DNA from: a virus
Length of the DNA stretch: 64,000 nucleotides
Reading direction: 5' to 3' (one strand)
Virus record (IMG/VR): IMGVR_UViG_3300032053_000013
Coordinates: 32,001 to 96,000 of that record
Within the stretch, counting starts at the first letter, position 1. Each line of letters begins with the position of its first letter. Position numbers and translations under genes: made by a program. The notes under the pieces are model-generated. The model was given only the letters and a program-made list of their open reading frames with translations. It was not told the origin of the DNA and ran no database searches. This document shows positions 734 to 58,894 of this stretch, piece after piece.

Positions 734-2462
734 GGCGACGGACGTCCGCAACGACGTGCAGTTCTCCTTCGACGCGGTGTGCGAGAAGGCGTGGCAGGAC
801 GACAAGGGAAAGATGTTCGTCAGGGCCGTGGCCTCCGACGACCGTCTCGACCTCCAGCGCGACCGCATGAGCAACACCGCCCTGAGGAAGATGGCCGACG
901 CGGCCAAGGCCGGCGTCCCCTTCCTGGAGACGCACCGCTCCGTGTTCGAGTTCGGGCGCACGGTGGGCGGGGACGTGGTGGACTTCGAGGAGGGCGGGAA
1001 GAAGGTCCAGAAGTTCGTGGTGGACGTGGAGCTGGACGGGGACTTCCCCCAGGCCAGGAAGCTCTTCAAGGAGGTGGCCGGGAAGACCTGCAAGCGCCAG
1101 CTCTCCATCGGCGGGAAGCTGAACCTCAAGAACAAGGAGTCCGTCCACGTCGAGATGACGCCGACCGGGCTCGCCCGCACGATCAACGACCTCGACCTCG
1201 ACCACATCGCCTCGACGCGGGAGAGCCAGGCGGCCAACCCGAGGACCTCCTTCACCGAGGCGATCTCGAAGGCGATCGACGAACATGAAAAAGGTCTTGC
1301 AAAAGAAATTGGGGGCGATCACAATGTACCGCAGATCCAGTTTTCACCTGAGGTGCTGGCTGCTTTCAAGCAGGTGGTCGAGATGGCCAAAGTTGGAGGC
1401 ATGAACATGGATAAGGTTCCGGAGACCCCGGCCACTCCGGCGACGCCCATGACGCCCGCCGAAACTCCCACGACTCCCGCGACCCCCGCGACCCCGAGCG
1501 AGACGGCCCCGGCCACCGAGGTCGCCTCCGAGAAGTGCGCGAAGGCCGCGACTCCCCGTAACACCGAGACCCCGAAGTCCCCGAAGACCCAGCCGGAGCA
1601 GGAGGCAGCCATGCCCGAGTCCAAGAAGTACGGACAGATGAAGGGCAGGGACGCCGCGACCGCCTGCGACCTCGCCAACGACATCGCGATCCTTCTCGCG
1701 AAGAAGAAGCCCTTCCCCGGCGCGGCCACCCCGTTCGGGTCCGAGGGGGAGAGCTCCGAGGACTCCGAGGAGATGACCGAGGAGGAGAAGGCGGTCGTCG
1801 ACTCCCTGTGGGCGACGCGCTTCGTCCTCGCGAAGGCCGTCTCCGGGGCGAGGCTCGGCGACGGGGAGAAGGCGTCCGTCTCCGACATCGTCGGTGCGGG
1901 CCCGTACGCCCCGCGCTCCGGCGCGAAGGGAACCAAGGGCCCGTTCATCCCCGACAAGGCCCCGAAGTCCGACACCACGGACATGGGCACGAGCGGGGTG
2001 ACCGACCACCGCAGGAACATCCAGGTCGGGGGCGAGATCAAGCCGACCGCCCCCACGGCGAAGTCGGCGCTGGACTTCACCCTCGACCAGCTCGAGGCGG
2101 CGAAGAAGATCCCGGCCGACCTCTCCACCTTCGGGAAGGCCCTGGGCGAGGAGATCGTCTCCAGGAACACCGAGATCACGAAGTCCATCATCGAGATGGT
2201 CGTCGAGAAGATGGCCACCGAGAGCGCGAGGTCCTCCACCGAGATCCAGAAGTCGGTCGAGGGGCTCGGGGACGTGGTCAACGACACCGCCAGGAAGATG
2301 GCCGCGATGGAGTCCCGGATCTCCAGGGTGGAGAAGGCCGGGGGCGTGAGCCAGAGCGGGCCGAAGGGCAAGGAAGACGTCGCCCCCGAGCGCGGGCGCA
2401 GGGGCGGAGTGTGGGGCGGCCTCTTCAACAGGGCCGCCGGGGACGCGCTGGCGAGGTACTAA
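717..2462 (+). CDS. Prohead maturation protease (HK97-like) fused to scaffold domain
   Basis: N-terminal AVASDDRLDLQRDRM...FLETH...QLSIGG...LDHIAST..AANPRT protease-like motifs; C-terminal Pro/Thr/Ala-rich region and coiled coil; position between portal and MCP. Confidence 0.8.
   Translation: MDKTAEATDVRNDVQFSFDAVCEKAWQDDKGKMFVRAVASDDRLDLQRDRMSNTALRKMADAAKAGVPFLETHRSVFEFGRTVGGDVVDFEEGGKKVQKFVVDVELDGDFPQARKLFKEVAGKTCKRQLSIGGKLNLKNKESVHVEMTPTGLARTINDLDLDHIASTRESQAANPRTSFTEAISKAIDEHEKGLAKEIGGDHNVPQIQFSPEVLAAFKQVVEMAKVGGMNMDKVPETPATPATPMTPAETPTTPATPATPSETAPATEVASEKCAKAATPRNTETPKSPKTQPEQEAAMPESKKYGQMKGRDAATACDLANDIAILLAKKKPFPGAATPFGSEGESSEDSEEMTEEEKAVVDSLWATRFVLAKAVSGARLGDGEKASVSDIVGAGPYAPRSGAKGTKGPFIPDKAPKSDTTDMGTSGVTDHRRNIQVGGEIKPTAPTAKSALDFTLDQLEAAKKIPADLSTFGKALGEEIVSRNTEITKSIIEMVVEKMATESARSSTEIQKSVEGLGDVVNDTARKMAAMESRISRVEKAGGVSQSGPKGKEDVAPERGRRGGVWGGLFNRAAGDALARY
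1297..1325 (+). promoter_or_regulatory. Internal sigma70-like promoter TTGCAA-N17-CACAAT
   Basis: Conspicuous A/T-rich patch inside the GC-rich protease gene, with an A-tract upstream. Confidence 0.45.
1407..2462 (+). CDS. Probable nested in-frame scaffold protein
   Basis: GGAGG at 1395-1399, 7 nt before in-frame ATG 1407, preceded by an AT-rich promoter-like patch; a second SD+ATG at 1601/1611. Confidence 0.5.
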   Translation: MDKVPETPATPATPMTPAETPTTPATPATPSETAPATEVASEKCAKAATPRNTETPKSPKTQPEQEAAMPESKKYGQMKGRDAATACDLANDIAILLAKKKPFPGAATPFGSEGESSEDSEEMTEEEKAVVDSLWATRFVLAKAVSGARLGDGEKASVSDIVGAGPYAPRSGAKGTKGPFIPDKAPKSDTTDMGTSGVTDHRRNIQVGGEIKPTAPTAKSALDFTLDQLEAAKKIPADLSTFGKALGEEIVSRNTEITKSIIEMVVEKMATESARSSTEIQKSVEGLGDVVNDTARKMAAMESRISRVEKAGGVSQSGPKGKEDVAPERGRRGGVWGGLFNRAAGDALARY

Positions 2463-2524
2463 GAGTCCGGCACGAGGAAGGTCGCCCCCGTTCGGGGCAT
2501 CAGATTTAGAAAAGAGGAGGATTC

Positions 2525-3925
2525 ATGGAGACGGCCGCTCAGGGAAGAGGGGTCGGCGGGCTGAACGAGGAGATGATCGAGAAGACGATCACCACGGGCG
2601 ACCTGCTGACAGGCGGTTTGCTGAACCCGATCCAGCAGACCCAGTTCATCACCCTCGTCAAGAAGTTCTCGGTGCTCCTGCCCATCAGCCGCTTCATCCG
2701 GATGCCGCGGCCGCTGATGGACGTGGACAAGCTCTGGATCGGGGAACCGGTCACGGAGTCCGTGGACGAGGCGACGGACACTGGCAACCTGGCCCGCGCC
2801 AAGTTCCAGCGCATCGTCCTCCGCGCCCAGAAGGTGCGGAGCGCCTGGAACATCACCACCGAGGTGCTCCAGGGGAACATCGAGCAGAACGAGTTCGAGC
2901 AGACCGTGATGAACACCATGGTCGAGAGGATCTCGACCGACCTCGAAGACCTCGCCATCAACGGCGACACCACCACGGTCGGGACCACGCCCCGCGACCG
3001 CCTGCTCCGCCGCCTCAACGGCTGGAACGTGGCGTCCGAGGGGGCGCACATCCTGGACGCCAAGGGGTCGAGCATCCAGAAGGGGCTCTTCTCCGAGATG
3101 AAGCGCCGGATGCCGAAGCAGTACAAGAACGACCCCGGCCTGCGCTGGCTGGTGGGCGACGCCATCGCCACCGACTGGGCGGACGTGGTCTCCGACCGCG
3201 GCACGATCCTCGGCGACGCCGCCCTCCAGGGCGCCGAGATGGCCCCGCTGGGCACCCCGATGATCCGCGTCCCGCTGATCCCGGACGACGCCCCGATCAC
3301 CATCCTCCAGGCGACCCGCGGCGAGTTCCTGGGCGCGGAGTTCGGCCCGTTCGTCATCTCCTCGACGAACGACACGATCAAGATGCAGGTGGACGGCGCC
3401 CCGGGCCCCGGAGTCACGATCGTGCTGACCCACGGGACGCTGAACACGGTCGAGGTCGCCAGGCAGATCAACGCCGCCCTGAAGGCCGCGATCGCCACCC
3501 TCGTCCAGGACGTGGCCCGCGACGACCGCGAAGGCCGCCTCCTGATGGAGAGCCCGGTGGTGGGTGCCGCGAGCTCGATCACCCTCATGTCGGTGGCGAC
3601 GGGCGTGCAGGCCTACACCACGCTCGGCCTCCTCGGCGCTCCCCCGTTCCCCGGACCGCCGCCGTTCTGGCCGGTGGCGAACGTCACCCACAGCGGCGCG
3701 GCGGCCGGCACGGCCAACACGGTGTACGAGGGGTCGTACATCTGGCTGGTGAACCCGAAGAACTTCGTGTGGGGCATCCTCGACGGGACCCGCATCTTCA
3801 CGGAGTTCAACAAGAACACCGACCAGATCGAGACGATCGTGTACAACCAGGTGGACGCCCAGGTCGAGAACGTCGACGCCTGCGTCAAGGCGAAGAACAT
3901 CCGGCGCCGCACGCTGGTCATCTGA
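2525..3925 (+). CDS. Major capsid protein (HK97 fold) with ~140-aa insertion
   Basis: GGLLNPIQQTQFI...RISTDLEDLAINGDT...LVNPKNFVWGI motifs; strong SD GAGGAGG; followed by a terminator. Confidence 0.85.
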   Translation: METAAQGRGVGGLNEEMIEKTITTGDLLTGGLLNPIQQTQFITLVKKFSVLLPISRFIRMPRPLMDVDKLWIGEPVTESVDEATDTGNLARAKFQRIVLRAQKVRSAWNITTEVLQGNIEQNEFEQTVMNTMVERISTDLEDLAINGDTTTVGTTPRDRLLRRLNGWNVASEGAHILDAKGSSIQKGLFSEMKRRMPKQYKNDPGLRWLVGDAIATDWADVVSDRGTILGDAALQGAEMAPLGTPMIRVPLIPDDAPITILQATRGEFLGAEFGPFVISSTNDTIKMQVDGAPGPGVTIVLTHGTLNTVEVARQINAALKAAIATLVQDVARDDREGRLLMESPVVGAASSITLMSVATGVQAYTTLGLLGAPPFPGPPPFWPVANVTHSGAAAGTANTVYEGSYIWLVNPKNFVWGILDGTRIFTEFNKNTDQIETIVYNQVDAQVENVDACVKAKNIRRRTLVI

Positions 3926-4048: not shown

Positions 4049-4432
4049 ATGCCGAGGTACTTCGTGTACCGGTACGGAGGGGTCCGCCAGGTCATAGGGC
4101 CGGGCAGCGGACTCGCGTACACCTTCTCGATGGACACCGTCACCACGGTGGGCGACGAGAGGGACGCGGAGATATTCCTGCACATGGGGTCCCCGGACAG
4201 CGGGTTCTACCTGTTCCGGGAGACGGACCAGTACGGGAACCCGGTCGGGCCGTTCCCCCCGGTGGACCCGGCGAGGCGCCAGAGCATGATCGACCCGAAG
4301 AGGTTCCCGTCGGACAGGATGTCGGGGAGCGTGAGGGCGTGGAGGGTGGCGACCGAGGACATGGCGGACCCAACCCTCTATTTCCACTTCGTCCGCAGGA
4401 AGATGAACTTCGGGCGGGGGGAGCAGTCGTAG
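4049..4432 (+). CDS. Hypothetical protein (head region)
   Basis: 127 aa, SD GAGGAGG, tight packing with neighbours. Confidence 0.7.
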   Translation: MPRYFVYRYGGVRQVIGPGSGLAYTFSMDTVTTVGDERDAEIFLHMGSPDSGFYLFRETDQYGNPVGPFPPVDPARRQSMIDPKRFPSDRMSGSVRAWRVATEDMADPTLYFHFVRRKMNFGRGEQS

Positions 4433-4442
4433 GAGGGGCCTC

Positions 4443-5402
4443 ATGCCCGCAGGATTCGCCTCTGGGCTCCACACGGCCTTCGCCTACGTCACCATCGAGC
4501 AGGTGAGGGCGAACGGCATCCCGGACACCCTCATCGGGGACAACAAGCTCCGGTCCCTCATCCGGCTGGTGAGCCACTGGATCAACAAGATCACCGACCA
4601 ATGGTTCCTCCCCGTCAGGCTGCGCGAGAGGACGGACGGGTCCGACAGCGCCGTCGCCAGGATCCCCAACCTCATCCCCATCCTGGAGCTCTTCAACCTG
4701 ATCCTGGAGAAGCCGGGGCTCTTCTCGATGGTCATGCCCGACGTGGCGTACATGGTGAAGCAGCGGTACGTCATGATGCTCGACCGGCACATCAGGCTGC
4801 CCATGCAGCCGCACTTCGTCGTGCTGGACGGGGTGTTCGGGTGGCTGGTCGACGACTACGTGAAGGCGAAGACGAGGACGGTCCAGCCCCTGGTCGTGTC
4901 CAACGCTGACATCACGGGAATCCCCGACCCGAAGGAGATCTTCGTGGACAGCGTGGACGGGTTCGCCGTGGGGGACGCCATCCTTATCGGTAACGACCCG
5001 GAGCCGAAGTCCTACCCAGGCATCGTGACCGGCGTCATCGACACGCCCCCGCTCAAGGTGGTCTTCGAGCCCATCGTCCCCTTCAGCCTCCCCGCCGGGG
5101 TGGCGGTGTCGAGGTACGGGAGGGTGCCGGACCTGATCCAGTACGCGGCCATGCTCCTCATCAGGGACAAGATCCAGGGAGGGTGGGGGAACGTCGGGAG
5201 CTACGACACATCCGAGTCCCCCGGGGGGATCGGGACCAGGCTGAACAGCGAGTCGGTCGAGGGGTACTCCTACTCCCTGTCGCCCCTGAAGGCGATCAAC
5301 GGGCCGGGAGGGGGGGCCATGACGACGGGCAACGCAGAGGTGGACGACATCCTCTACCAGTTCACCTCCAGCTCCGGCGGACTCTACGTGGGGTACGCGT
5401 AA
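4443..5402 (+). CDS. Head-tail connector/adaptor-like protein with inserted beta domain
   Basis: AYVTIEQVRA N-terminus and LNSESVEGYSYS C-terminus typical of gp6/gp15-like adaptors. Confidence 0.6.
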   Translation: MPAGFASGLHTAFAYVTIEQVRANGIPDTLIGDNKLRSLIRLVSHWINKITDQWFLPVRLRERTDGSDSAVARIPNLIPILELFNLILEKPGLFSMVMPDVAYMVKQRYVMMLDRHIRLPMQPHFVVLDGVFGWLVDDYVKAKTRTVQPLVVSNADITGIPDPKEIFVDSVDGFAVGDAILIGNDPEPKSYPGIVTGVIDTPPLKVVFEPIVPFSLPAGVAVSRYGRVPDLIQYAAMLLIRDKIQGGWGNVGSYDTSESPGGIGTRLNSESVEGYSYSLSPLKAINGPGGGAMTTGNAEVDDILYQFTSSSGGLYVGYA

Positions 5403-5854: not shown

Positions 5855-6424
5855 ATGCCGTATGCGCGTAAGGCCGTGGCGTTCTCCATCAGGATCGCCC
5901 CGAGGGGCAAGTACGAGAAGCTCATCCGGGACCTCGGGAAGGTCGAGAAGATCCTGGAGGGGGAGAGGACGGACGCGGCCCTCCGGGAGCTGGCGACGGC
6001 CGGGAAGGACTTCATCGTCGACGGCATCAAGAACGGGCGGGAGGGCTGGCACCAACTGAACGAGATCACGAAGAGGCTGAAGGGCGGGGGGGACGTCCTG
6101 ATCGACTCCGGCTCGTTCATGGGCGCGATGTCGGTCTGGAAGGAGGGGAAGAGGTGGTTCGGGGGGCTCCCCAGCGGGGTCAAGGGGGACAAGGGGCAGG
6201 ACCTGAACCTCGTGGGCCTGGTGCACGAGTGGGGCGCGACGGTGCCGGTAACGGACGCGATGAGGGGCTTCTTCCTGGCCAACGGGGTCCCGCTCCGGCC
6301 GGAGACGACCCACCTCACCATCCCGCCGAGGCCGTGGTTCGCCCCCGCGGTCGTCGAGCTCCACGCGTTCGCGGGGGAGGTGCTGCGGCCCCTGATCGAC
6401 TCCCTTCTTGAGGAGATAGGGTAG
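5855..6424 (+). CDS. Neck/virion morphogenesis protein (Mu gpG/gp10-like)
   Basis: WHQLNEITKRLKG..VLIDSGSFM, VHEWGA, IPPRPWF motifs. Confidence 0.7.
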   Translation: MPYARKAVAFSIRIAPRGKYEKLIRDLGKVEKILEGERTDAALRELATAGKDFIVDGIKNGREGWHQLNEITKRLKGGGDVLIDSGSFMGAMSVWKEGKRWFGGLPSGVKGDKGQDLNLVGLVHEWGATVPVTDAMRGFFLANGVPLRPETTHLTIPPRPWFAPAVVELHAFAGEVLRPLIDSLLEEIG

Positions 6425-7767
6425 TGCCGGTCCACGTCTACTGCATGAGGGGCGGGGTGGGGACCCCGGCGCCGGTACTCCCGGCGACGGTGTCGAGGGC
6501 CTTCGTCGACCCCGAGGTGGGGACCATGCTGCGCAAGCTGAACCCGGACGAGACGGCCTACGACGCCGGTGGGGCGTACTACGAGGCCGAGGTCTCGTCG
6601 CCCAACCTGGTGGGGGAGAAGATCACGGAGCTGTTCGCCTTCCAGGCGTTCTGGGGCGTGGAGCCCGCCATACCGGGCCTGCCGCCGTCCCAGGCGGCCG
6701 CCGTCGCGTTCCAGGTGTCGAACGACGGCGGGGCCACGTGGCTGGTGTGGCAGGACTCCGTCTCGTCGTGGGTCCCGGCCGCCGGGCCCCTGCTCGGGTT
6801 CTTCAACGACGCCCTCACGGTGGACCGGAGGATCCCCCTGCTCCCGTGGGGGGACCCGCACCAGGTGCGGTTCCGCGTCAGGATGACCCCCGGGGCGGGT
6901 GGGCTCCAGAGGCCGGTGGTGTACGGGCTCGCCCTGTTCAACCGGCACGACATGGACATCTCCGAGGACTGCGCGAGGTCCGTCAAGAGGCACCTCGACG
7001 ACGTCGTCAAGGTGCCCATGTACTACATGGCCGAGCTGGCCGTCCCCTCCGCGACGATAACCATCGAGAGCGGGATCGGGCTCGACGTCAGCGTGCGGGA
7101 GCCCATCAAGGTCTACAACCTCACGGCGGACCCGGCCAGGAACGTCAACCTATTCTCCTCCCTCGGGGGGCCGGACGGGAGGACCATCTCGATGGTGGCC
7201 GTGCAGGCCGGGCCGGTCGAGGTCCAGTTCACCGGGGTGCCGGACGTCTTCATCGGGGCCGAGGAGTTCTTCCAGGTCAGCAAGATGCCGTCGGTGGTGG
7301 TCTTCACGCCGAGCATGTCCCAGTACAACCCCACGAGGCACTGGTGGCCCGAGCCGGAGGTGTCGCAGTCGAGGGGGGTTGGGAGGCTGATGCGCCCCCG
7401 GCAGTTCTACAAGATCGACATGTCCATCCGGGTCCAGTCCTCCCTGAACAGGGAGGCGAGGCAGATGACGGACGCGGTGGTCCGCGTCCTCGACGTGGGG
7501 ATGTACTTCGACTCGGTGGCGAACGGGGAGAGGTACTGCGTATTCGCCCAGGAGAGCAGCGTCAGGGAGGACCGGGTGGCGCAGGGGATCTGGATCGGGG
7601 CCGTGAACATCGTCGTCTTCGGGAAGATGTGGATCGCCGAGGAGGCGGGCGAGGTGGAGACCGTCAGGCAGATCGTGGCCTCGGTGGGGGCCCAGCACAC
7701 TTGCAACTTGCTTTTGCCGGAGCACCTCCGTAGAGTATACCGGGAGAGGATCGAGGTCTCCGAATAG
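6424..7767 (+). CDS. Tail terminator-like protein with N-terminal extra domain
   Basis: C-terminal half resembles sheath terminators (PSVVVF...YKIDMSIRV); lies just upstream of the sheath gene. Confidence 0.45.
   Translation: MPVHVYCMRGGVGTPAPVLPATVSRAFVDPEVGTMLRKLNPDETAYDAGGAYYEAEVSSPNLVGEKITELFAFQAFWGVEPAIPGLPPSQAAAVAFQVSNDGGATWLVWQDSVSSWVPAAGPLLGFFNDALTVDRRIPLLPWGDPHQVRFRVRMTPGAGGLQRPVVYGLALFNRHDMDISEDCARSVKRHLDDVVKVPMYYMAELAVPSATITIESGIGLDVSVREPIKVYNLTADPARNVNLFSSLGGPDGRTISMVAVQAGPVEVQFTGVPDVFIGAEEFFQVSKMPSVVVFTPSMSQYNPTRHWWPEPEVSQSRGVGRLMRPRQFYKIDMSIRVQSSLNREARQMTDAVVRVLDVGMYFDSVANGERYCVFAQESSVREDRVAQGIWIGAVNIVVFGKMWIAEEAGEVETVRQIVASVGAQHTCNLLLPEHLRRVYRERIEVSE
7708..7736 (+). promoter_or_regulatory. 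Promoter-like TTGCTT-N17-TAGAGT
   Basis: AT-rich patch at the end of the 6424 gene, upstream of the sheath operon. Confidence 0.4.
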
Positions 7768-15365: not shown

Positions 15366-15671
15366 ATGATCTTCAGGGGCTCCAGGTACGAGGGGTGCAT
15401 GTTCACCGGCGTCCTCGGCAGGGACGGCAAGGTGCGGAAGTTCCTCCACGCCAGGGAGCCGCTCCAGGCCAGGGACATGGCGGACCCCGTCGTCGTCCAC
15501 TCCCTCCAGAGGGGGGAGGTGATCGACGAGCTGGCGTGGCGGGCCGTAGGCAAGCCGCGCCTGTGGTGGGTCATCGCCGACGTGAGCGGCGTCATGTTCC
15601 CCCTGGAGATCGAGCCCGGGACGGAGCTCGTGGTGCCGATGGCGGAGCTCATGAAGAGGAGGGAGTCCTGA
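15366..15671 (+). CDS. LysM/gpX-like baseplate protein
   Basis: SRY...HSLQRGEVIDELAWRAVGKPRLWWVIADVS...IEPGTELVVP. Confidence 0.8.
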   Translation: MIFRGSRYEGCMFTGVLGRDGKVRKFLHAREPLQARDMADPVVVHSLQRGEVIDELAWRAVGKPRLWWVIADVSGVMFPLEIEPGTELVVPMAELMKRRES

Positions 15672-16936
15672 TGGGCCGTGGCGCCCCGTGCTTCCCCGTG
15701 GTCGGCCTGGGGGTGGGCCTTCCGGCCCCCGTGGTGGTCCCGGACGTCGGGATCGTCGGGGTCCCGTCGCTCCCCGGGGGCGTCGCCCTCGCGTCGAGGC
15801 CCGTCAGCCGCAACAGGAAGTTCAGGGCGGCGCCGAACTTCAGCGTACTCGGGTTCACGGCGGACAGCGGGGTGGTGAGGGGGCTGAGGCTCGACGAGGT
15901 GGCGGGGTTCGGGCTGTCCGTCGTCAGGGTCGTGCTCAACAACCTCAACAACCGGCTCGGGAAGACGATCCTCGCGAAGGAGCAGTCCAGCTTCGTAGTG
16001 TCCCTCGGGTACGACAACCCCGGCCAGTTCCCGCACGGGACTTTCGTCGTCCAGCGGCCGAAGTTCCGGTACGCCGCCGGGGGCGGGCCCATGACCGTCG
16101 AGATCGTCGCCTACGGGGAGGCGGTCAAGCTGGGGGCCACCGAGCGCCGCGAGGCCTACCGGAAGATGGCGGACTCCGACATCGTCTCGGCGATCGCCTC
16201 CAGGAACGGGATGGCGGCGGACGTCGAGGCGACGACCCCGATCTACGACCAGGTCATCCAGGCGAACGAGAGCGACTGGAAGTTCCTGGAGAGGCGGGCG
16301 AAGCTCTACGGGTACGTGCTCTACGTGGACGCCGGGACCCTCCACTTCCACAAGGTGAGGCCGAGGGAGAGCGGGATCTCCGTCATGGGCGGGTCGGAGC
16401 CGGGCGTGCTCCAGGACTTCATGGTGCAGTCCAGGACGTTCATGAGGGGCCTGTCCCTCACCATGACGCAGATCGACCCGGTCACGAAGGACGAGGTCCT
16501 CGCGGTGTCCACGGAGTCCCCCGACGCCGTCCAGTCGACGATGGACTTCCGGAACTGGTCCGAGCTGGTGAGCATCCCCGGCGTGGGGCAGCCGAAGCGG
16601 TTCGTCGTGGGGGAGGGCCACCGGCAGTCCAGCACGGAGCTCGCGAGCATGGTGGACCAGATGGCGAAGTCAACGCGGTACGTGATCGCCGGGAGCGGGC
16701 TCCTCCACGGGATCGAGCAGCTCCGGGCGAACGACGTCATCGAGATCAACGGGGTGGGCCGGTCGAGCGGGAGGTACTTCGTCACCAGGGCCCTGCACGA
16801 GATCGAGGCCGAGGAGGGGTCGACCGGGGGAGGGTACAGGGTCAGGTTCGACGTCGTGAGGTGCGGCGCCGGGCCGCTGTCGGCGGCCTCGGGGACGCCG
16901 GTGGAGCCGCAGAGCGCCGGGACCGTGGCGCTGTAG
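15671..16936 (+). CDS. Baseplate hub (P2 gpD/Mu gp44/gp27-like)
   Basis: LGYD, KMADSDIVSAIA, QANESDWKFLERRA..YG, LRANDVIEINGVGRSSGRYFVTRALH. Start taken at ATG 15671. Confidence 0.85.
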   Translation: MGRGAPCFPVVGLGVGLPAPVVVPDVGIVGVPSLPGGVALASRPVSRNRKFRAAPNFSVLGFTADSGVVRGLRLDEVAGFGLSVVRVVLNNLNNRLGKTILAKEQSSFVVSLGYDNPGQFPHGTFVVQRPKFRYAAGGGPMTVEIVAYGEAVKLGATERREAYRKMADSDIVSAIASRNGMAADVEATTPIYDQVIQANESDWKFLERRAKLYGYVLYVDAGTLHFHKVRPRESGISVMGGSEPGVLQDFMVQSRTFMRGLSLTMTQIDPVTKDEVLAVSTESPDAVQSTMDFRNWSELVSIPGVGQPKRFVVGEGHRQSSTELASMVDQMAKSTRYVIAGSGLLHGIEQLRANDVIEINGVGRSSGRYFVTRALHEIEAEEGSTGGGYRVRFDVVRCGAGPLSAASGTPVEPQSAGTVAL

Positions 16937-16946
16937 GAGGTGTGGG

Positions 16947-17228
16947 GTGGGGTGCTGCGGAAGGAAGTCGAGGGTGGAGGCGAGCCCGGTGCCGAGGGGG
17001 CACGCCGTCAGGGAGATCGCCGTGCGGCCGGTCGCCATGCCGATGACGCCGCCCGCCCCGCCCAGGCCGCCCGCCGGGTCGCCGGGGTTCTCCGCGACCA
17101 TCCAGCCGACCAAGACAGTCGTCTGCAAGAGGTGCGGGGCGCGGCTCGCGCTGAAGCACGTGTGGAGCGGGCGCCTCCGGCGGTACTACGACGTCTCGTG
17201 GTGCCCCGGATGCGGGAAGGGGGGGTAG
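16947..17228 (+). CDS. Small Cys-rich (Zn-ribbon) hypothetical protein
   Basis: MGCCGRK N-terminus, CKRC and CPGC; SD AGGAGG. Confidence 0.55.
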   Translation: MGCCGRKSRVEASPVPRGHAVREIAVRPVAMPMTPPAPPRPPAGSPGFSATIQPTKTVVCKRCGARLALKHVWSGRLRRYYDVSWCPGCGKGG

Positions 17229-17385
17229 GTGGTCCTGAGGTTCGTCGTCGCCGTCGCCCTCGTCGAGGCCGTGGTGGAGATCACGTCCACGGCGGAAGTG
17301 TTCGAGGGCGTCCGGGCATGGCTGGCGGGCAGGGGAGAAAAGCCCCGGAAACTGGGGATTTTCGCCCGGTGTGGCTACTGCCAAA
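17229..17385 (+). pseudogene. 5' fragment of a DUF1360-like membrane protein gene, interrupted by endonuclease cassette
   Basis: VALVEAVVEI...FEGVRAWLAGRGEKPRKLGIFARCGYC closely matches the N-terminus of 18186-18596. Confidence 0.7.
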
Positions 17386-17392
17386 AAAGTCC

Positions 17393-17421
17393 TTGCGGTT
17401 ATTGCCAAACAGTAGTATTAT
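17393..17421 (+). promoter_or_regulatory. Promoter TTGCGG-N17-TATTAT, leaderless for the endonuclease
   Basis: -10 box ends 6 nt before ATG 17428; no SD. Confidence 0.55.
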
Positions 17422-17427
17422 GGGGAC

Positions 17428-18216
17428 ATGAAGAAGATCAGCGAAAGCACTGCGGCCAGGATCGCGGACCTCTACAGGGAGGGGCACTCCTCCTACAAGA
17501 TAGCCGAGATGCTGGGGGTGGGGCACAGTGCCGCGAGCAAGTACGCGAGGTGGCTCAGGATCTCCAGGACGAGAAGCGCGGCAAGCGTCCTCGCCCGGTT
17601 GAGGGACACGGAGATCAACGTCGAGTTCTTCAAGGAGTGGAGTCCCAACCTCGCATATCTTCTCGGAATCATCTGGACAGACGGATGCCTCGGGAAGACT
17701 ACTCGGGGGGAACAGGTGATCCTCTCGATGAAGGAGTCGGAACTCCTTGGGAAGATCGGGGAAGCCACGGGGGCCAAGGTCTCGCAGCACAGGAATCGAA
17801 AGGAGTGGATCTGGACGATTCGATTCAGCCTTTTGACGGTCGTTTCCTGGTTCAAGGATAGGGGACTCACGGGCAGGAAATCCTTCACGGTCGAATGGCC
17901 GAAGGGGTTGCCGGAGGGCCTGGAGATTTCTTTCGTTCGGGGGCTCATAGATGGGGACGGGTCGTTCGGGATCGACAAGAGGAACGGGTCTCTGATGTTC
18001 GGGTTCGTCTCGGCCTCGGAGGTCTTCGCAAGGCAGATGAGGGAGTGGCTCGGGGCGCGGGTTGCCGGAGGGAGCTTCTTCTGCGAAAAGGGTAGGTACT
18101 GGAGAATACGGTACGGCGGTCGGGGGGCAGAGAAGATCCAAGAGATGCTGTCTCCGAAGGATGGGGAGTGGGGGCTCGATAGGAAATGGAAGATGTCCTC
18201 TGGAAGTTGCCGATAG
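17428..18216 (+). mobile_element. Free-standing LAGLIDADG homing endonuclease with N-terminal HTH
   Basis: AYLLGIIWTDG and FVRGLIDGDG motifs; HTH IADLYREGHSSYKIAEMLGVG; lower GC than flanks. Confidence 0.9.
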
Positions 18217-18596
18217 CGATTGTGCTCGTAGAGGCGGTCGTTGAGATCTGCGCCGAGGGGGAGATTTTCGAGCCCCTCAGAGCATGGCTCGCCGGGAGGG
18301 GAGATAAGCCCCGCAAGATCGGTGTGTTCGTGCGTTGCCCCTACTGCATGTCGGTTTGGATGGCAGTCGGAGCGGCCTACCTGCTCCAGGTCATGGGGGT
18401 CTTCGGGTGGATGGGGTGGTTCGAGCCGGTCCTGTGGGGATTTTTGATCCACCGGGCGTCGAATCTGTGGCACGAGGTCGTGTCGAGGCATCTGGGGCGG
18501 GTGCCTTTCACCCTCTTCATGCGGACCTGGAGGCACGAGGAGGTCGAGGCGAAGCCGGAGGAGAGGAAGGGGGATGGTGGAGCCGCTACAGGGTAA
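18186..18596 (+). CDS. DUF1360-like membrane protein (holin-like candidate)
   Basis: IFEPLRAWL...CPYCMSVW followed by TM segments. Confidence 0.7.
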   Translation: MEDVLWKLPIAIVLVEAVVEICAEGEIFEPLRAWLAGRGDKPRKIGVFVRCPYCMSVWMAVGAAYLLQVMGVFGWMGWFEPVLWGFLIHRASNLWHEVVSRHLGRVPFTLFMRTWRHEEVEAKPEERKGDGGAATG

Positions 18597-19725
18597 CTCG
18601 ATGCCGTTCTCCGAGCGGCGATATTACGGATGCTACCGTGGCACGGTCGCGGACAACCTCGACCCCCTGCGCCTCGGGCGGGTGAAGTGCAGGTGCCACG
18701 AGGTCCTGGGGCTGGAGATGACGACGGACTGGGCGGCCTACAAGGGGGGGCCGTTCGGGGGCGACCTGGACTGCGGGGTCTTCGCCCCGCCGGACGTCGG
18801 CGCGGCGGTGTTCGTCGAGTTCGAGAGCGGGGACGTGAACCGGCCCCTCTTCACGGGTACCTGGTGGGGGCAGAGGAAGGGGATGCCGCCGGAGACCCCG
18901 GCCCTGGCGAGGGCCGACGGGCAGACGTGCTGGAAGACAGACCCGAGCACCTCGGCCCCGAAGGGAATCGACCAGTTCAGGAGCGCGACCAACGAGGACC
19001 AATGCCAGCCCATCTCGCCCCTGCGGGCGAAGGGGCCGCCGCAGTACCCGTGCAACAAGGTCCTCAAGACGAAGAACAACGGGATCACGGTCGAGATCGA
19101 CGACACGCCGGGGAGGGGCAGGATCCACATCTGGCACGGCCCGTCGAAGTCGTGGGTCGAGATCGACTCCGGGGGCGAGCTCTCGGTCAGGGTGGCCGGG
19201 AAGTCCTACGTCCTCGTGGAGGCGGACGACCGGCACCACGTGAAGGGGGGTCGCCACGCCCTGGTCGAGGGGGACGAGACGGTCCGCGTCGGGAAGGACC
19301 GGTGGCTGAGGGTCAAGGCGAACGAGACGCGGGAGGTCGGGGGCCTGCGTGACACGTTCGTCACGGGCAAGGAGCAGAGGGTGAACCAGGCGGGGCTCGA
19401 CGGGTTCGTCGTGGGGGAGGAGCAGAGGGTGGACCAGGGGGGGCTGAAGCACTGGACCATCGGGGACCGGGTGGACGTCGTGGTCGGGAACTGGACGCAG
19501 TGGGTCGTCGGGAACCTCCAGACCAACGTGTTCGGGAACTACGACCGCATCGCGGCGGGCAACATCAGCGACGTCGCCAGCGCGATCGCCCACTCGAAGG
19601 GGACCCCGACGGGGGCGCCTCCGGTCCCGCCGGTCCAGCCCCAGCCCCCGCAGCCGGTCCAGCCCCCGGGGTGCCCGGTCACCCCGCCCGACTTCACGTG
19701 CCCCCCGACGCCCCCGGCCCCGTAG
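18574..19725 (+). CDS. Baseplate spike (gp5/gpV/VgrG C-terminal-like)
   Basis: YRGTVADNLDPLRLGRVK, PDVGAAVFVEFESGDVNRP (OB fold), EIDDTPG..RIHIWH, V.G.E repeats, Pro-rich tail. Confidence 0.92.
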   Translation: MVEPLQGNSMPFSERRYYGCYRGTVADNLDPLRLGRVKCRCHEVLGLEMTTDWAAYKGGPFGGDLDCGVFAPPDVGAAVFVEFESGDVNRPLFTGTWWGQRKGMPPETPALARADGQTCWKTDPSTSAPKGIDQFRSATNEDQCQPISPLRAKGPPQYPCNKVLKTKNNGITVEIDDTPGRGRIHIWHGPSKSWVEIDSGGELSVRVAGKSYVLVEADDRHHVKGGRHALVEGDETVRVGKDRWLRVKANETREVGGLRDTFVTGKEQRVNQAGLDGFVVGEEQRVDQGGLKHWTIGDRVDVVVGNWTQWVVGNLQTNVFGNYDRIAAGNISDVASAIAHSKGTPTGAPPVPPVQPQPPQPVQPPGCPVTPPDFTCPPTPPAP

Positions 19726-19735
19726 GAGGATTACC

Positions 19736-20260
19736 ATGCCGGTGTCGCCGATCTCTAACGCCCAGGAGTGGAGGGCGGTCGTGGCCGACAGGGAGGCCCG
19801 CGCCTGCCTGCGGAGGATCGCGCTCACTGTCCTCTCCGACCTCGACCCGTCCAGGGTGAGGGCGTACAGGCTGACGGTCGAGGCGTCGAGGTCCCTCCAG
19901 AGGAGGCAGGGGGCCCGCATCGCGGCCATCGACTCGGAGGTCGGGTGCATCGTGTCCCTCATGGAGCGGCTCCCCGACTCTGGCGAGCCAAAGGAGTTCC
20001 GCCGTATGATGGAGGAGCGGCGCAACGCCCTCCTGGCGGAGCGCGGGGAGGTAGTCCAGGCCCTGGAGAAGCTCCCGACGATGATCTCGGGGTCGGAGCG
20101 CATCCTGAGGGAGGTCGAGGGGCAGGTCGCCAACGCGGCCTTCCTCAAGGGGGTCATAGAGGAGGCGGACAGTGCCGAAGGTGGCGTTCCTGGGGTCGCC
20201 GACCAGCCACGGGGCCCCGGTGATAACGGGCCCCCTCCCGACGCCGCACGTGGCGTGTGA
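19736..20260 (+). CDS. Coiled-coil hypothetical protein
   Basis: 174 aa, SD AGGAGG, helical heptads. Confidence 0.65.
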   Translation: MPVSPISNAQEWRAVVADREARACLRRIALTVLSDLDPSRVRAYRLTVEASRSLQRRQGARIAAIDSEVGCIVSLMERLPDSGEPKEFRRMMEERRNALLAERGEVVQALEKLPTMISGSERILREVEGQVANAAFLKGVIEEADSAEGGVPGVADQPRGPGDNGPPPDAARGV

Positions 20261-20471: not shown

Positions 20472-20945
20472 ATGTCCGGCATCTACGACTTCTTCCAGGG
20501 CCTGACGTCCTCGCAGTGGGACTCGATGGTCAGGGTGGTCCAGGACCTCCAGGACAGCGCGTCCGCGGAGAGGATGGACAGCCTCCGCAACTTCCTGGCG
20601 TCCCTCACCAGGGAGATCGACGCCGTGAACCGGAGGAGGGACGCCCTCGGGCAGAAGGTCGAGAACATCGAGGTCATCCTGACGCACCTCGACGCCCACA
20701 TCAGGGCGAACCCCGGCAACATGGAGGCCACCCTCCTCCGGTCCATCCTGATCCTGTGGAAGAGCCAGCTCAAGATCGAGGTGGCGGACCTCCGCCCGTC
20801 GGAGAAGCTGGACAAGAAGTACGACACGGAGCGGAAGCGGGAGCTCCTGGCCCAGCTCCAGGTCCTCGTCTCCTCGCTTAGCGTCGAGATGGGCGAGGCC
20901 AAGGCCGAGCGGGCGTCGGCGCCGCAGGAGGCGAGGGGGGCGTGA
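20472..20945 (+). CDS. Coiled-coil hypothetical protein
   Basis: 157 aa, helical, SD GGAGG. Confidence 0.65.
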   Translation: MSGIYDFFQGLTSSQWDSMVRVVQDLQDSASAERMDSLRNFLASLTREIDAVNRRRDALGQKVENIEVILTHLDAHIRANPGNMEATLLRSILILWKSQLKIEVADLRPSEKLDKKYDTERKRELLAQLQVLVSSLSVEMGEAKAERASAPQEARGA

Positions 20946-21385
20946 GGAGGACGACGGACATCATCGGGCGCGGGTGGGGCTTCCCCTTCCGGTTCACCAC
21001 CGTCGGCAGGGTGAGCAGGCTCGTGGGGGTCTCGGACGCGTCCTCTACCGAGAAGATCGGGATGGCGATCCGGCAGATCCTCGGGACGAGGGTCGGAAGC
21101 CGGGTGGTCGACCGGGACTTCGGGTCCGACCTCCGGGGGATCCTCTTCATGCCCATCGACGAGGTTTCCATCGCCAGGGTGCGGTTCGCGGTCACCTCGG
21201 CGATCCAGACCTGGGAGAAGAGGGTGGACGTCCTGGGAGTGGACGTGAACGCCGACCGGGTGAAGGATGGGGTCATCGACGTGACGGTGTACTACAAGAT
21301 CATCTCCACCCAGAAGGAGGGGAACCTCGTCTATCCTCTGTATATTTCGGAAGAAATGCGCGTGACCGGGCAGATAAACGTGTAG
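20942..21385 (+). CDS. gp25/gpW-like baseplate wedge protein
   Basis: IGRGWGFPF...IRQILGTRVGSRVVDRDFGSDL...AIQTWEKRV. Confidence 0.92.
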   Translation: MRRTTDIIGRGWGFPFRFTTVGRVSRLVGVSDASSTEKIGMAIRQILGTRVGSRVVDRDFGSDLRGILFMPIDEVSIARVRFAVTSAIQTWEKRVDVLGVDVNADRVKDGVIDVTVYYKIISTQKEGNLVYPLYISEEMRVTGQINV

Positions 21386-55704: not shown

Positions 55705-56282
55705 AGATCGGGGATGTAGTCATCCTGAAGGGGAAGGTGGTAGAGAAGGAATGTGGCTCCATCTCATCGAAGGGGGATCACCTCACCCTCATCGAGGGGA
55801 AGGCCGACATCGGAGGATGCGTACTGGCGAAGGACTGGCGGGGGGAGGTTCACTGCATCAATCCGGACCTTTTCGAGGTGGTATGGACCCGCGAGGAGGA
55901 AGTCGCCAGGAAGATGATGGATCCGGAGCCCGTGCAGTTCAAGCCGGTGAGCCTCCCGGAGATCGAGCAACGGCTCCTACAGTCCATGGCCCAGATGGTG
56001 TCTGTCAATCTCGACAAGGAGATCACCGCCGACTGGAAGTGGGTGGAGGGAAAGATGAACGCGAGCAGGCATGAGCCGCCGCCGAGGCCGGGGGAGAAGA
56101 GGGTCCTCGACCTCGTCCTCGCCGACCTCAGGGCGCGGGCGGAGGCGGGGAAGATCAAGTACGGGACGTACCTCATGACGCGGAACGGGAGGGACGCCCT
56201 GATGGACGCGTACCAGGAGGCGCTGGACCTTGTCATGTACCTCCGCCAGGAGCTCGAGGAGAAGGAGGAGAGGCGTGGGTGA
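55701..56282 (+). CDS. Hypothetical N-terminal domain fused to MazG-like nucleotide pyrophosphohydrolase-type domain
   Basis: C-terminal G..KYGTYLM..NGRDALMDAYQEALDLVMYL; internal SD plus in-frame ATG at 56055. Confidence 0.55.
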   Translation: MKIGDVVILKGKVVEKECGSISSKGDHLTLIEGKADIGGCVLAKDWRGEVHCINPDLFEVVWTREEEVARKMMDPEPVQFKPVSLPEIEQRLLQSMAQMVSVNLDKEITADWKWVEGKMNASRHEPPPRPGEKRVLDLVLADLRARAEAGKIKYGTYLMTRNGRDALMDAYQEALDLVMYLRQELEEKEERRG

Positions 56283-56514
56283 GAAGAAGGTCTGCCCGAG
56301 GTGCGGGAAGGAGTTTGTCGAGGGGCGCGAGGAGTACATGGACCCGACGAAGCACGGGTGGCCGGTGCCGACGGGCCAGAAGAGCGCGGACGGCTTCGAC
56401 GTCTGGAGGGTCCTCCTCTGCGCCGACGCGACGCCGGAGCAGGTCGCGGAGTACAGGGCCGTCAAGACGGACCAGTCCCTGGGGATCAGGTCCGTGGGAT
56501 TCGGGAAGAACTGA
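56275..56514 (+). CDS. Small hypothetical protein (CPRC)
   Basis: GTG start after AGGAGAGG. Confidence 0.55.
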   Translation: MGEKKVCPRCGKEFVEGREEYMDPTKHGWPVPTGQKSADGFDVWRVLLCADATPEQVAEYRAVKTDQSLGIRSVGFGKN

Positions 56515-56726
56515 TGGTGGAAATGATCAGAAGGCGGACAACCATCGACCTCGCCATCTACACGTTCCAGGAGACGGAGGGGTCGTTCTGCCCCTGCGGG
56601 GGGAAGGCGCACCTCCTGGCGCCGAGGGAGCCGGACCGCGACGCGCCCATCTTCTACCTCTGCGCGAAGTGCGGACGGATCGCCCAGGCGGGCGTCGGAG
56701 AGGTGTCGCCTCAGGAGGATCGATGA
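56514..56726 (+). CDS. Small Zn-ribbon protein
   Basis: CPCG and CAKC; coupled at both ends. Confidence 0.55.
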   Translation: MVEMIRRRTTIDLAIYTFQETEGSFCPCGGKAHLLAPREPDRDAPIFYLCAKCGRIAQAGVGEVSPQEDR

Positions 56727-58894
56727 TGGAGACGGAGTACGTCAGGTCGCTGCGGGTGGACTGGAAGGCGGAGCCGCCGGTCGGATCCCCGACGGTCGTG
56801 AGCACCTTCGCCGGGTGCGGGGGGAGCTCGCTCGGGTACCGGATGGCCGGGTTCCGGGAGCTGCTCGCCGTCGACTTCGAGGAGAACGCCGTGGCGACGT
56901 TCGCCAGGAACTTCCCGGGGGTCCCGGTCTGGCAGCGGGACATCACGAAGGTCACGGCGGAGGAGGTCCTGTCCTTCTGCAAGATCGGGAAGGGGGACCT
57001 GGACGTGTTCGACGGCAGCCCGCCGTGCTTCCCGGCCGGGACGGATGTGTGGACGGCGCGTGGGAAGGTGCCGATAGAAGGGGTTGAGATAGGGGATCTT
57101 GTGCTTACGCATAGGGGTCGGTACAGGAGGGTGGTCGGGAGGACGAAGAGGATAGCGGGAGGGCTGAGAAGGCTGGTAATCAAGTATGGTCGGGAGGATA
57201 TTGTTTGCACCGAGGGGCACCCTTTGTATGTGAGGAGGAGGGCGGGTCCGAGAGTGAGGAGTTACTCCGCGCCCGAGTGGGCCGCGGCGAAGGAGATTAG
57301 GCCGGGCGATGTTGTTCTGGAGCCGCATGTCGCGGAGGTCCCCGATCTGGTCGTGCCGGATGTGGTAACAAGGCAGAGGATCAACGTGGAGGGGCAGAGC
57401 GGGTCCGACCGGAGCGAGATGCGGCTGCTGTCGAGGCCGTGTTCCTTGGATTGGAAATCCTCTGAGTTTGCATGGGTTCTGGGGTTCTACGTGGCCGAGG
57501 GGCATCGCCGGGGCCGAGAGCCGACGTTTGTTGATGGGGGGCCATATCGGCGCGAGGTGGTGTTCTCGGTTGCGGATAAGGAAGCGGCTCCGCTTTCCGT
57601 GAGGCTGTCGGGGATGGGCCTCCATGCCTGCGTCCAGAGGCACAGCCAGGGATCGTCGAGGGTGTCGGTGAGCGACCTGGACCTGTGGTCTCTTGTGGGG
57701 GTTGTGGGGGAGGGCGCGGGGGGCAAGAGGATACCGGCGGCGTTCCATGCCCAGCCGGAGGAGTGGCAGAAGGCTTTCCTGGACGGGTACTTCGAGGGGG
57801 ATGGGTGCCTGAAAAGGAACGGGAAGGCAGGGGTCGTCAGGAAGGCGACCACGGTGTCGAGGGACCTCGCGGAGGGCGTGGCCAGGATGGTCGCCAGGGC
57901 GTTCGGAGTGGTGGCGTCGATTGATGTTCTTTATCCCGCGGGTGTAGGTAGCATCCAAGGCAGAAGTGTGATGGTAAGGGAGGCGTATTCGGTCGGCTAT
58001 AGCCTTCCGGGATCGAGGAAGCCGAGGCCAGGGTTTGTCGATGAGGCTGGGGCGTGGCTGCCCGTCGTGAGTAATGAGGAAGAGGATCGGGCTGCGGAGG
58101 ACGTCTACAACCTGGAGGTGGAGGAGGACGAGTCGTACGTGGCTGGAGGACTGGCGGTCCATAACTGCCAGGGCTTCTCGATGAGCGGGTCGAGGAAGGT
58201 GAGCGACCCGAGGAACAGCCTGTTCATGGAGTTCGCGCGGCTCATCGAGGGGCTGGGGCCGAGGGTCTTCCTCATGGAGAACGTGGCCGGGCAGGTGCGC
58301 GGCAAGATGCGGGGGGCCTTCATCGAGATCATGAGGGTGCTGAAGGGGACGGGGTACGCGGTGAAGTGCGCGCTGCTCAACGCGGCGCACTACGGGGTTC
58401 CGCAGCACAGGGAGAGGATGATCTACATCGGGGTGAGGCCCGACGTCGGGGCGGAGCCGTCGTTCCCCAGGCCGTCGGCGAGGGTGGTGACGTGCGGCGA
58501 GGCCATCGGGGACCTGGAGGGGTTCGACGACGGGGTGAAGATGCCGGGGTTCTCGAAGAGCCCGAGGGCGAGCAGGATGCTTAGCCAGATCCGGGAGGGG
58601 CAGCATGGGCTGGACGCCGACGCCAAGGGCGGGTACTTCAACACCGCGAGGATCGACAGGCTGAGGGTCGCTCCCACCATCCTCAAGACGAGCAGCCCCG
58701 CGTCGGGCCTGGTCCACTACGACGGGAGCAGGTGGCTCACCATCGCGGAGGCGAAGAGGATCGCGTCCTTCCCCGACGACTTCGAGCTCATCGGGAGCTA
58801 CCAGCACAGGTGGGCGAGGATCGGGAACGCGGTCATGCCCATGTTCATGCGGGCGCTGGCGTCCCACGTCAGGAAGGAGATCCTGGGGAGATGA
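56723..58894 (+). CDS. C5 cytosine DNA methyltransferase precursor containing an intein
   Basis: STFAGCGG (motif I), GSPP|CQGFS (motif IV split by intein), MENV (VI), GVPQHRER (VIII), IGNAV (X). Confidence 0.95.
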   Translation: MMETEYVRSLRVDWKAEPPVGSPTVVSTFAGCGGSSLGYRMAGFRELLAVDFEENAVATFARNFPGVPVWQRDITKVTAEEVLSFCKIGKGDLDVFDGSPPCFPAGTDVWTARGKVPIEGVEIGDLVLTHRGRYRRVVGRTKRIAGGLRRLVIKYGREDIVCTEGHPLYVRRRAGPRVRSYSAPEWAAAKEIRPGDVVLEPHVAEVPDLVVPDVVTRQRINVEGQSGSDRSEMRLLSRPCSLDWKSSEFAWVLGFYVAEGHRRGREPTFVDGGPYRREVVFSVADKEAAPLSVRLSGMGLHACVQRHSQGSSRVSVSDLDLWSLVGVVGEGAGGKRIPAAFHAQPEEWQKAFLDGYFEGDGCLKRNGKAGVVRKATTVSRDLAEGVARMVARAFGVVASIDVLYPAGVGSIQGRSVMVREAYSVGYSLPGSRKPRPGFVDEAGAWLPVVSNEEEDRAAEDVYNLEVEEDESYVAGGLAVHNCQGFSMSGSRKVSDPRNSLFMEFARLIEGLGPRVFLMENVAGQVRGKMRGAFIEIMRVLKGTGYAVKCALLNAAHYGVPQHRERMIYIGVRPDVGAEPSFPRPSARVVTCGEAIGDLEGFDDGVKMPGFSKSPRASRMLSQIREGQHGLDADAKGGYFNTARIDRLRVAPTILKTSSPASGLVHYDGSRWLTIAEAKRIASFPDDFELIGSYQHRWARIGNAVMPMFMRALASHVRKEILGR
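57026..58165 (+). mobile_element. Intein with LAGLIDADG endonuclease (380 aa)
   Basis: Starts CFPAGTDV, ends VYNLEV...YVAGGLAVHN followed by Cys +1; LGFYVAEG and FLDGYFEGDG motifs; distinct codon use. Confidence 0.95.

Follow-up and report, generated by a model that had tools for sequence, protein, structure and literature searches.

Homing endonucleases are not known to persist within coding genes other than by way of introns, inteins or the splitting of the invaded gene. The closest known precedent for the arrangement considered here comes from fungal mitochondria, where mobile open reading frames (mORFs) generate hybrid genes, as in atp6 of Allomyces macrogynus, atp6, atp9, cox2 and nad3 of Glomus sp., atp9 of Rhizopus and cox2 of Mortierella (PMC3630166), with related cases in Tremella fuciformis (PMC7315562). 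For T4-like phages, a review of mobile elements presents intergenic, intron and split-gene solutions only, the last exemplified by mobE in nrdA of Aeh1 and mobA in gene 39/60; no duplicated gene end is described and the word stem 'duplicat' does not occur in it (PMC2988022). Here we describe a locus (17229-18596) within a 64,000-nucleotide (nt) stretch of viral DNA, positions 32,001 to 96,000 of the 122-kb IMG/VR virus record IMGVR_UViG_3300032053_000013, which carries contractile-tail and baseplate genes and is referred to as the window. We consider it likely, on comparison with related phages, that a LAGLIDADG endonuclease cassette with neither intron nor intein lives here inside a coding gene, a DUF1360-like gene, by replacing the 5′ end of that gene.

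At this locus an orphaned native gene start (copy A) is followed by the endonuclease gene and then by a full-length copy of the interrupted gene, whose ATG at 18186 is overlapped by the last 31 nt (the last 10 codons) of the endonuclease open reading frame (ORF). Copy A aligns with the 5′ end of the full-length gene over 53 residues, with 57% identity and 77% positives (BLASTP, E 4e-22). At the DNA level it is ~65% identical to the replacement segment, and no exact word common to copy A and the full gene exceeds ~14 nt. The original prediction correctly placed the start of a DUF1360-like copy at 17229 but ended it after C-G-Y-C; the homology in fact stops one codon later, after C-G-Y-C-Q, with the CAA at 17382-17384, and the remnant frame then continues to 17861 as out-of-frame read-through. 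Its account of a LAGLIDADG gene next in line, and of a full copy opening with a diverged, lower-GC version of the same gene start, is borne out. The GC content of third codon positions (GC3) is 0.75 in the replacement segment (first 57 codons), 0.80 in the endonuclease gene and 0.85 in the remnant, against 0.97-0.98 in the flanking genes, and in every lineage the GC3 of the cassette is below that of the host genes. The same arrangement, with an identical protein and the endonuclease upstream, was assembled independently on 22 contigs from several samples and is therefore no assembly artefact. The assignment of the target to DUF1360 (PF07098) is weak, the protein of the window scoring 20.5 bits against a cut-off of 21 and that of a related contig, L004, 16.9; the atlas feature score between the target protein and DUF1360 clusters, which are mostly viral, is 0.93 and upholds the assignment as a lead.

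Related phages supply both states of the site (L and P numbers denote comparison contigs and alleles). In L004, a 42-kb viral contig, in L010/L011, which include an NCBI assembly, and in the contig of P0009, the gene order of the window is retained (gpD, small Cys-rich ORF, DUF1360-like gene, baseplate V), and a single uninterrupted gene of 131-132 amino acids (aa) is present without an endonuclease. The site is occupied in the window, L006, the P0005 contig, L007/L008 and L016. The endonuclease is present or absent, then, at one fixed site among related genomes. As the original prediction had anticipated, the endonuclease-free relatives possess one gene with a 5′ part like copy A and a 3′ part like that of the 18186 gene, and none of them carries both copies. 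Against the uninterrupted gene of L004, DNA identity is 85% for the remnant (to the 5′ part of that gene) and 86% for the 3′ part in the window (to the corresponding 3′ part). The nearest endonuclease-free allele, P0002 (on a short contig), likewise combines a 5′ part like copy A with a 3′ part 95% identical to that of the window.

The 5′ parts of the gene fall into an endonuclease-free allele (type I) and an endonuclease-linked allele (type II). Type II proteins start with M-E-D/N/E and carry M after C-P-Y-C. The type II segment occurs solely in the window, P0004 (L006), P0005 and P0006 (L007/L008), that is, on at least four backbones, and every type II allele is directly preceded by an overlapping endonuclease ORF. 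Type II 5′ parts share 82-91% identity among themselves and 55-69% with type I. The 3′ parts, however, pair across the types (window with P0002, 95%; P0004 with P0010, 96%; P0006 with P0009, 93%), and at the protein level the 3′ part of the window shows 95% identity to P0002 versus 68-77% to the other endonuclease-linked alleles. As judged from these alignments, the 5′ and 3′ halves of the gene do not share one history, and the replacement segment belongs to the endonuclease and not to the host backbone. Of 21 fixed differences between four type II and four type I DNA sequences, all are located in 18186-18356 and none beyond; therefore, the mobile unit extends from 17385 to ~18356 (972 nt) and comprises the leader, the endonuclease gene and the replacement 5′ segment. 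The linkage of the type II segment to the endonuclease and the discordance of the two halves support the earlier reading of a start-replacing cassette, in which an element inserted in the gene supplies a recoded N-terminus.

The cassettes of the window and L006 are 80.6% identical, and their flanks 57-74%. The remnant of the window resembles P0002 and L004, and that of L006 is identical to the 5′ part of L009, a contig from a sister sample. Because the remnants of the window, L006 and L016 are native to their backbones, and the junction is essentially the same in the window and L006, the remnant would be re-made from the recipient at each transfer. The replacement segments of the window and L006 differ by 19 synonymous and 5 non-synonymous changes, giving a ratio of non-synonymous to synonymous substitution rates (dN/dS) of 0.04. 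Strong purifying selection, together with the conserved ATG, thus identifies the segment as translated coding sequence and not as intron. For the endonuclease the corresponding dN/dS is 0.12, which points to purifying selection on this gene also.

The phage cassette is a 5′ mirror-image variant of the fungal mORF. In both, the mobile unit couples a LAGLIDADG gene (or, among mORFs, also a GIY-YIG gene) to a foreign and diverged version of one terminus of the target. The displaced native terminus persists as a remnant, and it is this remnant, not the functional terminus, that matches close relatives. mORFs, however, substitute the 3′ terminus: their foreign segment extends the reading frame coming from upstream, with the native terminus left on its downstream side. 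In the phage the substitution affects the 5′ terminus, so that the cassette must provide a start codon and translation initiation of its own; the new start is overlapped by the endonuclease ORF, and the native one lies orphaned ahead of the cassette. The host also differs, being a high-GC contractile-tailed phage instead of an organelle. Like the seg and mob genes of T4, the cassette has neither intron nor intein, is present in some related phages and absent from others, and goes with co-conversion of neighbouring markers, overlap with a neighbouring ORF and ATGA coupling, the last seen here in L004 (PMC2988022). The T4 genes, however, are intergenic or divide a gene so that two polypeptides, both functional, result. 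LAGLIDADG endonucleases of group I introns and inteins have the same fold and motifs, and are likewise inserted exactly at a conserved coding motif so as to interrupt the target site, but at this locus there is no RNA or protein splicing element, and rescue would occur at the DNA level through duplication and a new start. Bonocora and colleagues reportedly described in 2011 a T4 cassette of MobA and the gene 60 bypass, in which extra sequence disrupts the endonuclease's own target and preserves expression of the host gene. That cassette is alike in that a homing endonuclease travels with such a sequence; it is unlike in that rescue there is by ribosomal hopping over 50 nt and here by a replacement 5′ segment with an independent start. 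Full-text literature searches retrieved no description of this strategy in a phage.

The endonuclease itself is well supported, with a Pfam LAGLIDADG_3 match of 33.4 bits against a cut-off of 22.5. An N-terminal region (about 17440-17550) resembles the helix-turn-helix (HTH) family HTH_23. LAGLIDADG motif 1 (17650-17685) ends in T-D-G (residues 84-86) and motif 2 (17932-17961) in G-D-G (residues 176-178); D85, G86, G176, D177 and G178, which include the catalytic/acidic Asp of both motifs, are invariant among 8 homologues. An AlphaFold2 (AF2) model with a mean predicted local distance difference test score (pLDDT) of 86.9 places HTH helices ahead of two alpha-beta-beta-alpha-beta-beta-alpha units, and the closest structures found by Foldseek are I-Tsp061I, bI3 maturase and I-AniI (E 2e-9 to 3e-8, probability 1.00). 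The predicted fold agrees with that of monomeric LAGLIDADG enzymes. A sequence search of solved structures with the endonuclease returned nothing significant.

In a collection of cultured phages the target gene has no relative and those of the endonuclease are all distant (<30% identity); a metagenome scan with the endonuclease profile returned solely an already known 98-kb contig, and an exact search of viral and metagenome contigs for the left junction of the cassette gave no further copies. An automated search for duplications flanking 79 distant endonuclease relatives in viral contigs found no long one, although any of under ~25 codons would have escaped it; the wider endonuclease family is therefore not characterized by this architecture. 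Distant relatives in four low-GC viral contigs (L019, L021, L024 and L043, at ~2290-3400 in each) lie in gene-interrupting loci that resemble group I introns, as Rfam confirms for L024 alone (RF00028, 58 bits). Elsewhere in the window, an 871-aa ORF (56279-58894, +) encodes a C-5 cytosine DNA methylase with an intein (Hint_2, Intein_splicing, LAGLIDADG_3); this one phage therefore hosts an intein-borne LAGLIDADG endonuclease alongside the intron-free cassette.

The insertion point coincides with the most conserved motif of the target family, the codons for C-x-Y-C-Q/S-V-W. Endonuclease-free alleles read TAC TGY CAA TCC GTC TGG across it and type II alleles TAC TGC ATG TCS GTT TGG, the codons differing consistently between endonuclease-free and endonuclease-linked alleles. 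Such changes fit a loss of the recognition site that would block cleavage. In L016, a 52%-identical endonuclease is present at the same point of the homologous gene behind a native remnant of 49 codons, and the codon after C-G-Y-C is GCG in the remnant and TTG in the working copy. Past the C-x-Y-C codons, the remnant extends for 3 nt in the window (17384/17385) and in L006, and for 7 nt in L016 (~3485); this 4-nt offset equals the stagger of a LAGLIDADG cut, which may be coincidence.

A sister sample of L006 contains an endonuclease-free contig, L009 (allele P0010, with six member sequences; 67-495). Of the diagnostic sites, the first 17 carry the type I base in L009 and the last four the type II base; the changeover falls inside a 5-nt stretch common to both, immediately ahead of the insertion point, and L009 so retains exactly the four altered-site changes on an otherwise type I 5′ part. 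L009 looks like a recombinant with an altered and presumably resistant site, formed when the endonuclease was lost or when homing was aborted. Recombination between the two copies may have deleted the endonuclease, or a break may have been mended from the replacement copy with the endonuclease left uncopied.

In the leader at the left end of the cassette, no difference separates the window from L006 over the 37 nt that precede the endonuclease ATG (17391-17427); the two differences between them fall in its first 6 nt. Within the leader lies a 15-nt in-frame fossil of the left half of the target, TGCGGTTATTGCCAA, encoding C-G-Y-C-Q (17394-17408 in the window; 3209-3223 in L006) and beginning 9 nt after the true junction. 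This fossil could have been left by an earlier junction, or it could serve the endonuclease as an operator. Folding of the leader RNA does not stand out from that of shuffled sequence (z -0.22), and a sigma-70 promoter scan of the leader returned no consensus match. A by-eye candidate, TTGCGG-N17-TATTAT, matches at just 8 of 12 positions and is not claimed as a promoter. Frameshifting from the remnant into the endonuclease over the A-run at the junction was also rejected, because the heptamer is not slippery in the frame it has in the window and the direction of the shift needed does not match.

Around the architecture, the empty sites, the breakpoints, the linkage of segment and endonuclease across backbones and the purifying selection established above, a homing cycle can be drawn in which cleavage, the exact target, site immunity, homing and the route of repair are inferred by analogy with established homing-endonuclease biology. 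In a mixed infection, the enzyme would cut endonuclease-free alleles at the conserved C-x-Y-C-Q/S-V-W codons, and the double-strand break would be repaired from the cassette-bearing genome. The left end would pair with the remnant of the donor and the right end with the 3′ part of the gene, so that the entire cassette is copied, and the recipient's own 5′ part would be left behind as the new remnant. Full-length protein would then be made from the start carried by the cassette. The change of the site from CAA TCC GTC to ATG TCG GTT would render the carrier resistant to the enzyme that it encodes, and the ~35% DNA divergence between remnant and replacement may limit recombination that deletes the endonuclease.

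The same design is present at other genes. In L004 the baseplate V gene (4320-5330) is interrupted after 20 native codons by a homologous endonuclease of 276 aa (4438-5268; 32% identity), whose TGA overlaps a new ATG (ATGA at 5262) followed by ~20 differently spelled codons, onto which the remainder of the gene is joined. Between that remnant and its endonuclease lie a TGTGGTATAAT box, a hairpin and a Shine-Dalgarno site. In L006 the gp25-like gene (6217-7120) shows 12 native codons, a 255-aa homologue (6331-7098; 20% identity) and a new start at 7082. Of the 11 residues shared after the start codon, 10 use a different synonymous codon, the change lying at the third codon position in nine and at both the first and third in one (Arg); the Thr change (ACG to ACC), one of the ten, is absent from the L006 readouts. 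In the window the baseplate V and gp25-like (20942-21385) genes are both uninterrupted. A thyX locus (L096, 2600-4334; also L097), in which a 29%-identical HTH-LAGLIDADG gene lies between ORFs covering positions 8-65 and 59-186 of the Thy1 (thyX) profile, was rejected as a further case, being a split or intron-bearing gene with no duplication.

Whether one HTH-LAGLIDADG lineage of high-GC contractile-tailed phages uses 5′-end replacement as a regular strategy, in at least three genes of the baseplate module, is in our estimation evenly balanced, and the same holds for the roles that its parts would then have. The orphaned native start would be a left homology arm, re-made from each new host. 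The re-spelled segment would confer immunity; as a heterology barrier, it would also direct repair by way of the remnant and make the endonuclease slower to be lost. The 15-nt leader fossil may be an operator for autorepression, of which I-TevI provides an example.

Several points weigh against a start-replacing cassette or temper the case for it. Synonymous divergence (dS) between the window and L006 is ~1.0 for the cassette, a value not exceeded by the baseplate V gene; the transfers are therefore not recent. The Shine-Dalgarno-like G-run lies ~12 nt from the ATG at 18186, a longer spacing than ideal; translation from this ATG, like the cleavage site and the immunity of the type II site, is predicted. 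Only one of three control loci that look intron-like by eye (L024) scored in Rfam, so a negative result from Rfam is weak on its own. Furthermore, L015 (2114-3476; also L098) has no remnant: its 49%-identical endonuclease immediately follows the small Cys-rich ORF and overlaps the start of the DUF1360-like gene, directly upstream of which it lies. The remnant is therefore not obligatory. This form may be the ancestral free-standing state or a cleaned-up derivative. In L015 the Cys-rich ORF and the DUF1360-like gene stand before gpD, not after it. The remnant-less form would suit an ordinary free-standing endonuclease of the T4 seg/mob kind situated upstream of the gene, with type II as a co-converted flank and the remnant as an accidental scar of one illegitimate repair event. 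We regard this as unlikely, even though co-conversion of flanking markers is established for intronless homing in T4 (PMC2988022) and the extra C-G-Y-C-Q fossil in the leader suggests untidy junction events in the past. The endonuclease lies between a truncated and a full copy in the window, L006 and L016, and between intact genes only in L015. Backbone-native remnants with a shared junction are what a role as homology arm predicts, and the layout of remnant plus replacement recurs at two other genes. Moreover, the right breakpoint falls within ~10 nt of the insertion point in all lineages, with none of the tailing off with distance that marks co-conversion.

It is extremely unlikely, in our view, that copy A is joined to the 3′ part, with the start at 18186 unused, whether by translational bypass or by a self-splicing intron of group I or another class. 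In favour of such a reading, the protein would be seamless wherever the copies were joined at homologous points, a G stands immediately ahead of the supposed 3′ junction, and distant relatives of the endonuclease do occupy group I introns, as in L024. However, only 43 nt precede the ORF and none follow it, which leaves no room for a group I core, as the original prediction had recognized; Rfam returned no ribozyme match with E up to 10 across 16500-19500 of the window (noise alone), and none with E up to 0.1 in L004, L006, L016 and L015. The 5′ exon of a group I intron ends in U, which pairs with G in P1, whereas the would-be exon here ends in A (CAA in the window and L006). The supposed intron would, moreover, hold 55 codons under strong purifying selection with a conserved ATG, and the leader RNA folds no better than shuffled sequence. 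An intein was rejected likewise: the endonuclease is in frame +1 relative to both copies, with stops in the gene frame, and is therefore not an intein given that it also lacks a Hint domain, which the methylase intein possesses. That both copies are functional, as a duplicated gene pair in which the remnant peptide, or its fusion with the 158-codon read-through tail, has a role of its own, is very unlikely. The remnant does keep its start and an open frame (210 codons in the window, 249 in L006), and it is about as close to L004 as the 3′ part is (dS 0.52 vs 0.49). Yet the read-through tails are out-of-frame overlaps with the endonuclease that end at different points, in L016 and L004 the frame of the remnant meets a stop within a few codons, the length of the remnant is set by the insertion point alone (52, 49, 20 and 12 codons across loci), and the recombinant L009 does without a remnant. 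Lastly, the data are metagenomic and both allele types co-occur in sister samples, circumstances in which two alleles might be assembled into a chimera; given that the 22 contigs derive from several independent samples and assemblers, that five further lineages show the arrangement and that the two copies have no exact word longer than ~14 nt in common, the likelihood of this is close to nil.

The coordinates of the locus and its native neighbours are collected in Table 1. Beyond the region tabulated, a 174-aa ORF (19736-20260, +) between the baseplate V and PAAR-like genes has no counterpart at that position in L006 and therefore represents an indel between related phages.

Table 1. Features of the cassette-bearing locus and adjoining genes, in window coordinates.
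Feature	Position	Strand	Remarks
gpD-like hub gene	15671-16936	+	Upstream in gene order
Small Cys-rich (zinc-ribbon-like) ORF	16947-17228	+	Native upstream neighbour; position kept in relatives
Native 5′ remnant (copy A) of the DUF1360-like gene	17229-17384	+	52 codons, from GTG start to the CAA after C-G-Y-C
Cassette leader (left end)	17385-17427	+	43 nt before the endonuclease ATG
LAGLIDADG homing endonuclease gene	17428-18216	+	262 aa
Full-length DUF1360-like gene	18186-18596	+	136 aa
Replacement (type II) start and first ~55-57 codons	18186-18356	+	Carried by the cassette
Altered version of the presumed target site	18348-18356	+	ATG TCG GTT vs CAA TCC GTC in endonuclease-free alleles
Native 3′ part of the DUF1360-like gene	18357-18596	+	Stop at 18594-18596
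Baseplate V / gp5-like spike gene	18574-19725	+	Native downstream neighbour; uninterrupted here; Pfam Phage_base_V and Gp5_trimer_C

Taken together, these comparisons suggest that rescue purely at the DNA level, by means of a spare and re-spelled gene start, would constitute a further route by which homing endonucleases enter coding genes. The natural series is nearly complete: it includes empty sites, sites occupied on several backbones, a form without remnant, a recombinant that bears the altered site but no endonuclease, and sister cassettes at two genes nearby. The homing cycle, and what each part contributes to it, can thereby be put to a direct test. There are practical consequences also: annotation will mis-call such orphaned gene starts and chimeric genes, and the two halves of the target gene trace separate histories in phylogeny. 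The cassettes additionally offer compact HTH-LAGLIDADG endonucleases with targets that can be deduced. Should 5′-end replacement prove to be a regular strategy of this lineage, it would represent a fourth general solution for endonucleases residing in phage ORFs, beside introns, inteins and split genes.

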